Both the position numbers and the translations under genes were made by a program. 64,000 bases of DNA. Source: an uncultured Christensenella sp. (GTDB lineage Bacteria; Bacillota; Clostridia; Christensenellales; UBA3700). Of the stretch, positions 30,451-59,508 are shown piece after piece (position 1 is the stretch's first letter; every line of letters starts with the position of its first letter). The stretch covers positions 157,329 through 221,328 of the forward strand of contig CAJTNA010000001.1 of NCBI GenBank assembly GCA_910577845.1, given 5' to 3'. The notes under the pieces were generated by a model, which was not told the DNA's origin, made no database searches, and was given only the letters and a program-made list of their open reading frames with translations.

Positions 30451-30539
30451 GGAAAGTTGGCCGAGCGGTTTAAGGCGCTAGTCTTGAAAACTAGTGATGG
30501 GTAACACCACCTGGGGTTCGAATCCCTAACTTTCCGCCA
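30451..30539 (+). tRNA. tRNA-Ser (anticodon UGA), CCA encoded
   Basis: Hand-folded cloverleaf: acceptor ggaaagt/actttcc, anticodon stem ctagt/actag with loop cuUGAaa, a long variable arm and the T-loop ttcgaat. Confidence 0.9.
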
Positions 30540-30827: not shown

Positions 30828-30906
30828 TTTCTTAACATTCATCTCGCAAAAGGCTACCCGCTGGAATTGCGGTGTGTTAGGCTGTTACTGCTAAAGGCAA
30901 ACAAAC

Positions 30907-30932
30907 CCCGACTGACTATCAGTCGGGTTATT
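30907..30932 (+). terminator. GC-rich hairpin, possible terminator of the small ORF
   Basis: Perfect 8-bp stem cccgactg-actat-cagtcggg followed by a weak U tract (ttattg). Confidence 0.4.
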
Positions 30933-31154: not shown

Positions 31155-31183
31155 TTGCATTTAAAATATTAATATGTTATACT
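31155..31183 (+). promoter_or_regulatory. Strong extended -10 promoter
   Basis: TTGCAT, 17-nt spacer, tgtTATACT. The predicted TSS is near 31190, the first base of the left inverted repeat. Confidence 0.65.
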
Positions 31184-31189
31184 AACTAT

Positions 31190-31356
31190 GCCAAACAAGT
31201 TATATGCCCTAATTAGGAGTGCGGGCTTTTTTTAATTATTTTAAATTATTCGAATGGGTATATCCTGTTTTAAAAACGTTCATATTATGAATTTGGTAAA
31301 AAGCAAATTCCAATATGTGGACGTTTTTACCCGCACTGCATATATACTTGTTTGGC
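31190..31356 (+). ncRNA. Unclassified element bounded by inverted repeats (structured leader/sRNA or invertible DNA segment)
   Basis: 31190-31207 pairs with 31338-31356 (18 bp, one bulge). 31218-31225 pairs with 31330-31337 (8 bp). An internal imperfect hairpin spans 31272-31328. No known riboswitch consensus was recognised. Confidence 0.5.
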
Positions 31357-31380
31357 GACAGTCGGAGTTTGCGTTTTTCG

Positions 31381-31408
31381 TGCGTTGACTTCGGTTGACG
31401 CATTTTTT
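31381..31408 (+). terminator. Intrinsic terminator between the structured element and the lipoprotein ORF
   Basis: 9-bp stem tgcgttgac-ttcg-gttgacgca (includes two G-U pairs) with a UUCG loop, followed by ttttttatttt. It lies 18 nt before the GGAGG RBS. Confidence 0.7.
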
Positions 31409-31425
31409 ATTTTACGGAGGTTTAT

Positions 31426-31926
31426 ATGAAAAAATTAGCAAGTTTTCTATTAATATTACTGTTTATGCTCACATTGGCTGGATGTGAGGCTGTTGATTGT
31501 GCAACTTGCAATGATACTCAAAAGATTGAATGTAATATATGCGACGGACTAGGTCAGGAAAAATGTGTTGTTTGCAATGGAAGCAGTAAGGTTGATTGTT
31601 TTTATTGTGACACCAGTGGAAGAGTTACTTGCTCTATATGTTTAGGTTTAGGTAAAAAAAATTGCACCTCTTGCAATGGTACTGGCTCAATAAAAACTTA
31701 CGATTCAAAAACTGGCAAATGGACTTATAAAACTTGCACTATATGCTCTGGTAGTGGGAGAAAGTTTTGTACATATTGCGGTGGGATGGGAACTAATAAG
31801 TGCACATGTTCATTAGGCAAAAGAAATTGTACTCAATGCACAAGTGGAAAAATTATTTGTGAAAATTGCAATGGAACAGGAAAGCAGAAATGCAAAGATT
31901 GTATAAAAAGAACGGAACTTTATTAA
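31426..31926 (+). CDS. Lipoprotein with about 11 CxxC motifs (DnaJ cysteine-rich-domain-like repeats)
   Basis: Signal peptide with lipobox LTLAGC. The mature part is almost entirely CxxCxGxG-like units (CNICDGLG, CVVCNGSS, CTSCNGTG, CTICSGSG, CTYCGGMG, CENCNGTG). Confidence 0.75.
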   Translation: MKKLASFLLILLFMLTLAGCEAVDCATCNDTQKIECNICDGLGQEKCVVCNGSSKVDCFYCDTSGRVTCSICLGLGKKNCTSCNGTGSIKTYDSKTGKWTYKTCTICSGSGRKFCTYCGGMGTNKCTCSLGKRNCTQCTSGKIICENCNGTGKQKCKDCIKRTELY

Positions 31927-32693: not shown

Positions 32694-33644
32694 TTAAAAT
32701 ACTTTATTCGCATTTTTCTTTAAATCATTATACTTTGCTCTACTCTCAATATCACCAAATAAAGTTGCTTGATTAATACCTAATTTATCAAGTTCGTCAA
32801 CAATTTTTTGTTTACATTGTTTTGGAATAACAAAACTATATATTTTATATTCATCGTTATTGTTGTACAATTCTGAATTTAGTCCAAATATAGCAAAAAG
32901 TCCATTTTGTTTTTGCAATCTATCATTATTTATTAATGGACGAACTATAAACGTACTAAAAATATCTTTTGGATTTGTTCTATAGTTCAAAAAAGCTGTT
33001 CGTTCTCTGCTAACTTCAGAAATATATTTTTGAAACACATTAACATTATTAGTTTTTAATTGCTTAATGCAGTCATTATCCAACTTTTGATTATTGTTAT
33101 CCAGCTGGTGTTCAAGAAATTTTGCCAACATATTTTTTTCTTCATCATCCAATTTAGCAAGGCACGACAACAACAATGCTCTGTCGCTTTCAAAAGATAA
33201 AATGTTCTTTTTGCGAGTGGCAATAACAAAAAACTGACCATCTTTTTCATCATGTTGATAACTTATTGTTTTAGTTGAATAATCTGCACTAGCAAACCAC
33301 AATGCAACTAGTGGATTAGTTGTCAAGTCTAACAATCTAGTCGGATATGTATAATGTTGCATTTTTGCTAATTGACTCAATGCGGATAAGCCAACAAATT
33401 CGTTTGGAAAATATGTTAAAGCATCAAAATAAGCCTCTTTTTCATTTGCATTTCTAAATACACTTGGTGTTAAACAAGTTTCATATATTTGCTTTTCTCC
33501 CCTGTAAAAGAAATTATAATTATTTTTATCAATTGAACTTTCATATTTATTTAAAAGCTTTAAAATGTTAGTATCACAAATAGGTTCGTTAATTTTTTTT
33601 ACAATACTTGACCAAGAATTTCTCATACCCAAATTATTTCTCAT
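32694..33644 (-). CDS. FRG domain-containing protein
   Basis: FFYRGE motif and AKMQHYTYPTRLLDLTTNPLVALWFA, the signature of the FRG domain family; 316 aa. Confidence 0.7.
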   Translation of the reverse strand: MRNNLGMRNSWSSIVKKINEPICDTNILKLLNKYESSIDKNNYNFFYRGEKQIYETCLTPSVFRNANEKEAYFDALTYFPNEFVGLSALSQLAKMQHYTYPTRLLDLTTNPLVALWFASADYSTKTISYQHDEKDGQFFVIATRKKNILSFESDRALLLSCLAKLDDEEKNMLAKFLEHQLDNNNQKLDNDCIKQLKTNNVNVFQKYISEVSRERTAFLNYRTNPKDIFSTFIVRPLINNDRLQKQNGLFAIFGLNSELYNNNDEYKIYSFVIPKQCKQKIVDELDKLGINQATLFGDIESRAKYNDLKKNANKVF

Positions 33645-53489: not shown

Positions 53490-53565
53490 GCTACTGTGGC
53501 TCAGGCGGTAGAGCACGTCCTTGGTAAGGACGAGGTCACGGGTTCAAGTCCCGTCAGTAGCTCCA
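53490..53565 (+). tRNA. tRNA-Thr (anticodon GGU), CCA encoded
   Basis: Acceptor gctactg/cagtagc, anticodon stem cgtcc/ggacg with loop ttGGTaa, and T-arm cgggttcaagtcccg. Confidence 0.9.
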
Positions 53566-59417: not shown

Positions 59418-59508
59418 AGAGAGGTCTCCTAGTTTGGCTTATGGAGCACGATTGGAAATCGTGTAATGTTGATAGCATTCGAGGGTTCAAATCCCTTCCT
59501 CTCTGCCA
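59418..59508 (+). tRNA. tRNA-Ser (anticodon GGA), CCA encoded
   Basis: Acceptor agagagg/cctctct, anticodon stem cacga/tcgtg with loop ttGGAaa, a long variable arm and T-arm gagggttcaaatccctt. Confidence 0.85.

Follow-up and report, generated by a model that had tools for sequence, protein, structure and literature searches.

A candidate family of transcription-attenuation leader RNAs ahead of accessory genes in uncultured gut Clostridia

The closest described systems are the Bacillus pyr/PyrR, trp/TRAP and T-box attenuators and the riboswitch platforms, in which a promoter-proximal leader carries a terminator just before the open reading frame (ORF) and a chain of mutually exclusive helices. 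An antiterminator of similar stability overlaps the terminator, and a further segment upstream is complementary to the antiterminator. This layout is shared by an element that begins at position 31190 of a 64,000-nucleotide stretch of contig CAJTNA010000001.1 from an uncultured Christensenella sp. (the window, to which coordinates refer unless another sequence is named), between a promoter and the gene for a 166-residue lipoprotein. The element is likely to be a cis-acting transcription-attenuation leader RNA and a member of a previously uncatalogued family, 16 distinct homologous copies of which were found in metagenomes and metagenome-assembled genomes (MAGs) of gut Clostridia, on contigs of 30–52% GC. 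From its sequence, the leader most likely chooses between transcription stop and read-through. A novel leader working by termination and antitermination was one of three readings offered in an initial annotation of this DNA, and it is the reading favoured by the 16 homologous leaders, which combine a covarying hairpin and antiterminator with an exclusive terminator and, immediately downstream, a gene.

The window copy is composed of the following parts, listed from the promoter to the presumably regulated gene.

31155–31183 (+): promoter, with a −35-like TTGCAT (31155–31160), a 17-nt spacer and an extended −10 TGtTATACT (31175–31183).
31190–31207 (+): P1 5′ arm, GCCAAACAAGTTATATGC, partner of 31338–31356 (18 bp, one bulge).
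31208–31217 (+): bulged mini-hairpin CCTAATTAGG at the P1/P2 junction, on the 5′ side only (from the fold).
31218–31225 (+): P2 5′ arm, AGTGCGGG, partner of 31330–31337.
31226–31270 (+): large U-rich asymmetric internal loop, 45 nt on the 5′ side against 0 nt on the 3′ side, with small local hairpins.
31271–31285 (+): P3 5′ arm, partner of 31315–31329 (fold).
31289–31311 (+): apical hairpin P4, consisting of GAATTTG, the loop GTAAAAAG and CAAATTC(C).
31315–31329 (+): P3 3′ arm (fold, covariation).
31330–31337 (+): P2 3′ arm, CCCGCACT (fold, octamer search).
31338–31356 (+): P1 3′ arm, GCATATATACTTGTTTGGC (fold, repeat finder, covariation).
31357–31378 (+): linker GACAGTC and pre-terminator segment GGAGTTTGCGTTTTT, invariant in long-type members.
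31359–31397 (+): antiterminator hairpin, 31359–31374 with 31382–31397.
31380–31409 (+): intrinsic terminator GTGCGTTGAC-TTCG-GTTGACGCAT, with its hairpin at 31380–31403 followed by T6AT4 (terminator scan).
31416–31926 (+): ribosome-binding site (RBS) GGAGG at 31416–31420 and ORF at 31426–31926, encoding the 166-residue lipoprotein.

The predicted transcription start, G31190, is the first base of GCCAAACAAGTTATATGC and lies 7 nt past the −10 hexamer. The extended −10 promoter described in the initial annotation is found where it had been placed, and its layout recurs in all 16 members: TTGnnn, 17 nt, TGnTAnAnT, exactly 6 nt, and then the G that is both the +1 position and the first nucleotide of P1. 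The window promoter is absent from the output of a consensus scanner, its −35 box agreeing at 3 of 6 positions only. The 18-bp P1 with its single bulge, P2 and the inner hairpin had also been located correctly, the repeat finder returning P1 and the inner hairpin (31271–31294 with 31306–31329) independently, as the terminator scan returned the UUCG-loop terminator before the lipoprotein RBS. The P2 octamer occurs twice in the 64 kb, both occurrences being the P2 inverted pair itself. P4 contains the family-wide motif TTTGG(T)AAAAA(T)GCAAATTCC, which varies little or not at all in any long-type member.

The RNA of 31190–31415 folds at −82.1 kcal/mol, compared with −45.5 ± 4.0 kcal/mol for dinucleotide shuffles (z = −9.27; none of 200 shuffles as good), in keeping with the earlier statement that the helices far exceed chance; the opposite strand folds at −64.2 kcal/mol. 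In the minimum-free-energy (MFE) fold the terminator is not formed, and its place is taken by the antiterminator hairpin, a competing structure missing from the initial annotation. The overlap covers three parts of the terminator: its 5′ arm, its loop and the initial 4 nt of its 3′ arm. Two terminator pairs are G–U, so that the terminator is predicted to function on the + strand only.

Copies of the leader were reached by several routes. The bait was a spurious 55-residue minus-strand ORF (31403–31239) that is sometimes annotated by gene callers. Two related ‘proteins’ share its first 19 residues and lead to unrelated loci (L099 and L100–L103), at which the whole module of promoter, hairpin, 3′ domain and RBS recurs before different genes. 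An exact 23-nt pattern from the 3′ domain gave five more loci in a metagenome scan, and homologues of one downstream protein led to the long-type L113 and the short-type L109, L112, L117, L118 and L119. A further short-type copy was found with nhmmer over the retrieved loci, in MAG locus L033, and BLAST against INPHARED gave a diverged long-type copy (L121) at 338–535 of MT835503.1. That record (1–49328) is deposited as ‘UNVERIFIED: Bacteriophage sp.’ but is actually a fragment of a bacterial chromosome, because it encodes MatE, ABC transporters, AdhE, an Fe-hydrogenase, a Mur ligase and FGAM synthase. A scan of IMG/VR with the 23-nt pattern and a BLAST search of PLSDB returned no leader copies.

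The copies fall into two subtypes, long (approximately 210 nt; nine copies and the diverged L121) and short (approximately 155 nt; six copies). With a covariance model trained on the nine long copies, the independent L121 scored 111.6 bits and the six short-type copies each scored 38–52 bits (E about 1e-5 to 1e-8). The model reported a single site in the window, where no other copies of the arms or core were found, and none in the RqcH loci of the closest relatives. By its neighbouring RqcH gene the organism belongs among uncultured Christensenellales-like Clostridia of the mouse gut, the nearest genomes having 76–78% amino-acid identity and one fragment 97%. Among 79 genome loci retrieved through RqcH, those of the nearest genomes lack the region that lies downstream of the gene in the window, and BLAST and nhmmer found no element there; an unrelated MAG locus in the collection, L033, carries the short-type copy noted above.

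In all copies the promoter is followed by a long, irregular hairpin with P1 (9–19 bp), P2, a U-rich asymmetric loop on the 5′ side and an apical hairpin; P3 is confined to the long subtype. The asymmetric loop is present in every member and is variable in both sequence and length (6–45 nt), and the mini-hairpin at the P1/P2 junction is seen as CC(Y)AAT(T/A)A(A)GG in the window, L100, L104 and L107. The apical motif of the family is UUUGGNAAAAA(U)G, with a GGNAA loop in which N is U in 13 copies, C in two and A in one. A RACAA-type linker joins the hairpin to the 3′ domain, and an RBS with a same-strand ORF follows the terminator in 16 of 16 copies, after a gap of 10–30 nt in most and approximately 35 nt in L121; in several copies homology extends past the RBS to the ATG. 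With an RBS and an ORF behind every terminator, and the promoter exactly 6 nt before P1 in all 16, the arrangement is that of a leader predicted to act in cis.

Homologous regions were compared for compensatory changes, and the helices covary in alignments of the nine long copies and of all 16. Aligned with MAFFT, the long copies have 95.2% of the cells of the proposed structure paired; two-sided changes affect 15 pairs, namely 9 of the 15 aligned P1 pairs and 6 of the 8 aligned P3 pairs. None of 500 shuffles reached any of the five measures used, and structures slid by 1–3 columns were only 30–45% paired. For the inner arms of P1 the cognate partner is the best partner in eight of the nine long members, and P1 and P2 together form a duplex of 23–32 bp in eight of the nine (18 bp in L105). 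In place of the P2 arms of the window, relatives have AGTAGGGG/CCCCATACT and AGTACGGG/CCGTACT. The 16-member alignment has 93.5% of its cells paired, and 27 of the 45 pairs vary on both sides, among them 11 of 15 in P1 and nine in the antiterminator. The antiterminator cells are 97–100% paired and the terminator cells 98.9% paired, with compensatory terminator variants in short-type members (GTGCATTCC/GGGGTGCAC and GTGTAC/GTACAC).

In all 16 members the two 3′ folds overlap, and they differ little in stability: −12 to −19 kcal/mol for the antiterminator and −8 to −17 kcal/mol for the terminator. The antiterminator is the MFE structure of the 3′ domain in eight of nine long-type members. A third partner is apparent upstream. 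In the window, GGAGUUUGCGUUUUU (31364–31378) pairs over 15 bp, two of them G–U, with the apical 3′ half AAAAA(U)GCAAAUUCC. The 3′ part of P4 (31298–31311) is therefore a candidate anti-antiterminator, and the pre-terminator segment would have a double role, as the 5′ arm of the antiterminator and as the target of the apical 3′ strand. In every member the apical 3′ strand is the best partner that the upstream hairpin offers to the pre-terminator segment (−15 to −21 kcal/mol), and in most members the duplex is matched by no more than 2% of shuffles. In the short subtype the corresponding strand AAAAAGUGUUUUCUCUC (AAAAAGUGUUUUCUC) is complementary to GAGRGGRAnCAYUUUUU over 16–18 bp. Duplexes formed across subtypes reach approximately −7 to −16 kcal/mol, compared with −15 to −24 kcal/mol within a subtype. 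That the complementarity of apex and pre-terminator segment is conserved though the sequence is not is the signature of a functional alternative pairing, here that of an anti-antiterminator. Three apex variants in the long subtype (U>C in L104; A>G and U>C in L113) keep the long-range pairing in 100% of cells, and the MT835503.1 copy has a further compatible apex change, A>G giving U–G. P4 itself is less well kept: the U>C change in L113 creates an A·C mismatch, and a change in the 5′ strand of P4 gives an A·A mismatch in L099.

Several observations weigh against this interpretation. The window copy is one U short in its apex, and its apex/pre-terminator duplex is no better than shuffles (26 of 200). 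Apex and 3′ domain hardly vary among long-type copies, and support for their pairing there consists of three one-sided changes and the contrast between subtypes, with no classical compensatory changes. With P1 to P3 closed, the apex would lie approximately 100 Å from the pre-terminator segment, tethered by a 7-nt linker. A simple fold-back geometry was considered and rejected: it needs stems of equal length, and the measured 3′ strands (11–36 nt lower against 13–39 nt upper) show no consistent match. Because the alignment of all 16 members was fitted to the model structure, its counts lean towards that structure, and the sample is small, comprising 16 copies from related uncultured Clostridia.

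Strand asymmetry is seen throughout the family. The sense strand folds 9–35 kcal/mol more stably than the antisense strand in all members tested, with 4–13 G–U pairs on the sense strand against 0–4 on the antisense strand. Terminator and antiterminator are both rich in G–U, and the one-sided changes within them are of the types G–U to A–U or C–G to U–G. Judged by these sequence properties, the element acts as a sense-strand RNA.

From the observed promoter geometry, helices, covariation, mutual exclusivity and conserved long-range complementarity, we infer a course of events that extends to termination itself, the default state, the direction of the switch and its trigger. Transcription would start at G31190, and the first approximately 167 nt would fold into the irregular hairpin P1–P4 with its conserved apical loop. 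The next approximately 50 nt could then adopt either of two exclusive folds. If the antiterminator forms, RNA polymerase would read into the lipoprotein gene; if the terminator forms, with its UUCG loop and U-run, the transcript would end at approximately 31405–31410. The third element would be the apical 3′ strand AAAAAGCAAAUUCC, complementary to the antiterminator 5′ arm. Described as five segments, the cascade would consist of the apical hairpin (1:2), the duplex of the apical 3′ strand with the pre-terminator segment (2:3), the antiterminator (3:4) and the terminator (4:5). With the apical hairpin closed, 3:4 would form and the gene would be read. With strand 2 freed, or nucleated through the A-run of the loop on the U-run of segment 3, 2:3 would form, 4:5 would terminate and the gene would be off.

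The trigger is most likely a trans-acting protein or RNA that recognizes the GGNAA apical loop. A small-molecule ligand is considered less likely, since conservation outside the pairing cascade is limited to the apical GGNAA loop, the P1 base and the RACAA linker, whereas the large internal loop is variable and 6–45 nt long; this sparse conservation argues against an aptamer. Only position 3 of the GGNAA loop varies. A GNRA-like fold with one extruded base, as in P22 boxB, would predict variation at that position. A dedicated riboregulatory system, in which a protein or RNA factor reads the GGNAA pentaloop, flips the five-segment cascade and co-ordinates scattered accessory genes in gut Christensenellales-like Clostridia, is a tentative and rather unlikely extension of this scheme; its genes would be those for surface leucine-rich repeat (LRR) and Cys-rich lipoproteins, YpsA/SLOG proteins and a restriction–modification pair. 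Alternatively, the complementary apex and pre-terminator sequences that the leaders have in common may allow them to interact in trans.

No described RNA accounts for the element. Rfam 15 (4227 models) was searched with the window and 11 other loci, at gathering thresholds and at E ≤ 10, and no family matches the element, in agreement with the initial annotation, which had recognized no known riboswitch. The overlaps seen are at noise level: S774, the mir-4766 model on the opposite strand, and Phe_leader at 26–29 bits against a gathering score of 55. The Rfam 15 matches within the window are a flavin mononucleotide (FMN) riboswitch (RF00050; 50395–50514, +; 111.6 bits) and three tRNAs (30451–30536, 53490–53562 and 59418–59505, +), two of which have long variable arms; none falls on the leader. 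A full-text literature search found no description of the family. Two further candidates were rejected. For 6S RNA, RF00013 gives no match, the internal loop is one-sided (45 against 0 nt) and an ORF always follows. For leader-peptide attenuation, there is no conserved ORF or start codon after the GGAG of the 5′ bulge, and that GGAG belongs to the P2 region.

Among the other explanations, an independent trans-acting small RNA (sRNA) of approximately 215 nt, the second of the initial readings, would have the downstream gene as an incidental or secondarily affected neighbour, with paralogues perhaps cross-talking through the apex and the pre-terminator segment. The element does have its own promoter and a good intrinsic terminator, and the apical loop and pre-terminator segment are identical in all long-type copies, so that a terminated leader could pair with a nascent leader elsewhere. 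Such an RNA may arise as a by-product, in the form of the terminated leader. As the primary function it is improbable: an RBS and a same-strand ORF trail 16 of 16 copies, and a covarying antiterminator that overlaps the terminator would have no purpose in a stand-alone sRNA.

A constitutive 5′ stabilizer or processing hairpin, giving protection from 5′-dependent decay or an RNase III site, followed by a leaky terminator and involving no regulated switch, would fit the start of P1 at exactly +1 in 16 of 16 copies, which leaves the 5′ end base-paired. It would also fit the long P1–P2 duplex in eight of nine long members, where selection acts on pairing and not on sequence, and the scarcity of conserved nucleotides outside helices. 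There is, in our judgement, only a small chance that this is the whole explanation, as it would leave unexplained the near-invariant 3′ domain, the covarying antiterminator that overlaps the terminator, and the 15–18-bp complementarity of the apical strand to the antiterminator arm in two sequence-distinct subtypes.

Contigs of the window species have the element unaltered and in one constant orientation, but allelic variation was also observed within leaders. A second allele of the window locus is carried by a Logan contig (L092; SRR31373264), which matches the window without a difference over 2.9 kb, as far as 31220. Beyond this point L092 2895–2970 is collinear with window positions 31221–31357, but the hairpin interior there has diverged strongly, and the apex is the canonical GGTAAAAATGC. 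L106 and L107 are alleles of one locus that are 95.7% identical overall and only approximately 83% identical in the leader, their P1 arms being of types seen at other loci. The sharp replacement of the hairpin body, less marked in L106 against L107, is suggestive of gene conversion among paralogous leaders.

A mobile or DNA-level repeat, such as a miniature inverted-repeat transposable element or an integron attC-like hairpin lying by chance in 5′ untranslated regions, might also produce alleles that differ sharply inside the element, and several copies with approximately 50 nt identical do occur at unrelated loci in genomes of 30–52% GC. The element ends GCCAAAC...GTTTGGC are one mismatch from the attC core/inverse-core consensus, whereas members from GC-rich hosts end in CACAC/GTGTG, which misfits attC cores. 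The homology begins at the −35 box and continues as far as the RBS, so that its limits are not the ends of the inverted repeats, no target-site duplication flanks the repeats, and every copy is a sense-oriented 5′ untranslated region. The window holds a single copy, searches of IMG/VR and PLSDB gave none, and the sole ‘phage’ match is the mislabelled bacterial fragment. As the strand asymmetry and the terminator/antiterminator logic also point to RNA, a mobile repeat is very improbable.

The remaining initial reading, an invertible DNA segment between the repeats at 31190–31207 and 31338–31356, flipped by a site-specific recombinase as in the Clostridioides difficile cwpV and flgB-type switches, which likewise have inverted repeats between a promoter and a surface-protein ORF and involve a terminator, has next to no chance of being correct: although the repeats enclose approximately 130 bp in just such a position, approximately 30 independent contigs of the locus are collinear and none is inverted at the contig level, the apical motif lies on the promoter and terminator strand at 16 of 16 loci, the arms vary between loci yet stay complementary, as RNA pairing predicts and a recombinase site does not, G–U pairs and fold stability are strongly biased to the sense strand, Pfam labels reveal no recombinase domain among the genes within approximately 3 kb (the range covered), and inversion would leave every helix intact, together with a terminator that lies outside the repeats and is independent of orientation, and so would switch nothing. 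The inverted orientation was sought in contigs carrying the lipoprotein, the upstream 73-residue ORF and a 41-residue ORF, all of which were collinear. Three Logan contigs do break at 31355–31362, at the outer edge of the right arm, which had seemed to favour inversion. Right contigs start at 31355, 31358 and 31362 and left contigs end at 31375 and 31384, and left and right contigs overlap by exactly k−1 = 30 nt (L090 ends at 31384 and L083 starts at 31355). The breaks fall where the sequences of co-existing alleles, or of paralogous leaders, run together in the 3′ domain that they share. Inverted repeats and assembly breaks together thus mimicked a phase-variable DNA switch, where RNA helices and a multi-copy RNA domain are the probable cause, a point of caution for similar loci.

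The window gene (31426–31926) encodes a lipoprotein with a signal peptide, a lipobox LAGC and DnaJ-like CxxCxGxG zinc-finger repeats. The protein falls into no Pfam family, and a search of 5.8 billion proteins gave no homologue beyond its own species. Other leaders precede genes for BspA-type LRR lipoproteins (230 and 1265 residues), a DUF898 membrane protein and a GreA C-terminal-like protein, and the L121 leader precedes a gene for an EcoRI-type adenine methylase, behind which lies a GmrSD/HNH gene. Eight copies have downstream a gene for a protein of approximately 150 residues with weak similarity, below the Pfam threshold, to the YpsA SLOG family. By these annotations the downstream genes appear to be surface or accessory genes, and no shared pathway is evident. 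PADLOC gave no defence-system match for the regulated genes.

If correct, the proposal would add a covariation-supported family of cis-regulatory RNA, with a testable switch architecture, in gut Clostridia that have never been cultured. It would also place BspA-type LRR proteins, Cys-rich lipoproteins, SLOG proteins and the methylase/GmrSD pair in one putative regulon, offering a handle on surface and accessory variation.

Other features were observed around the leaders. In the window, an FRG-domain protein two genes past the lipoprotein (32694–33644, −) matches the PADLOC candidate phage-defence family PDC-S15 (E = 1e-64). A GC-rich 9-bp hairpin at 30906–30926, 80 nt past the 73-residue ORF, is scored as a minus-strand terminator, with no minus-strand gene upstream of it, and is probably a bidirectional terminator for that ORF; it is preceded by a GC-rich, possibly structured stretch (30840–30905). 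Immediately upstream of the L099 leader are a tRNA and two Gut-1 RNA copies (RF01706; 621–691, +, 56.6 bits, and 731–804, −, 71.9 bits), and L113 has a sub-threshold Gut-1 match. A glmS ribozyme is present at 2825–2977 (−) of L108. At 658–1638 of L109, a YpsA/SLOG-like gene directly follows a gene for a 161-residue protein with C-terminal resemblance to the same family, suggesting tandem paralogues, with the leader (481–640) before the first of them. At 1799–2956 of L113, a 164-residue gene of unknown family is followed by the leader and then by a 151-residue gene. Several YpsA/SLOG-like loci have as their convergent neighbour a 1255-residue HRDC/AAA_11/AAA_12 helicase gene.

Among described leaders, the T-box (RF00230) resembles the family in its long irregular 5′ hairpin, conserved apex, variable body and strongly conserved antiterminator/terminator domain. 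It differs in that the present leaders have no Rfam T-box match, no UGGN antiterminator bulge and no specifier loop, and no aminoacyl-tRNA synthetase or amino-acid gene lies downstream of them. The leader family resembles the Weinberg-type orphan leader motifs in Rfam, which come from gut and metagenome surveys, in having been found only in uncultured gut Firmicutes, in its covariation support and in combining an unknown ligand with heterogeneous genes, and it matches none of the 4227 Rfam 15 models. Unlike the pyr/PyrR, trp/TRAP, T-box and riboswitch systems, the family is without a T-box sequence, specifier loop, (G/U)AG repeats, PyrR binding loop, leader peptide or Rfam match, and its downstream genes are mixed accessory genes and not those of one pathway. 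In the present leaders, unlike those attenuators, the putative anti-antiterminator would be buried in the apex of a 100–167-nt hairpin that is closed by P1 from +1. The leader family is itself previously undescribed, whereas the class of mechanism proposed for it, with terminator, antiterminator and anti-antiterminator, is well known.

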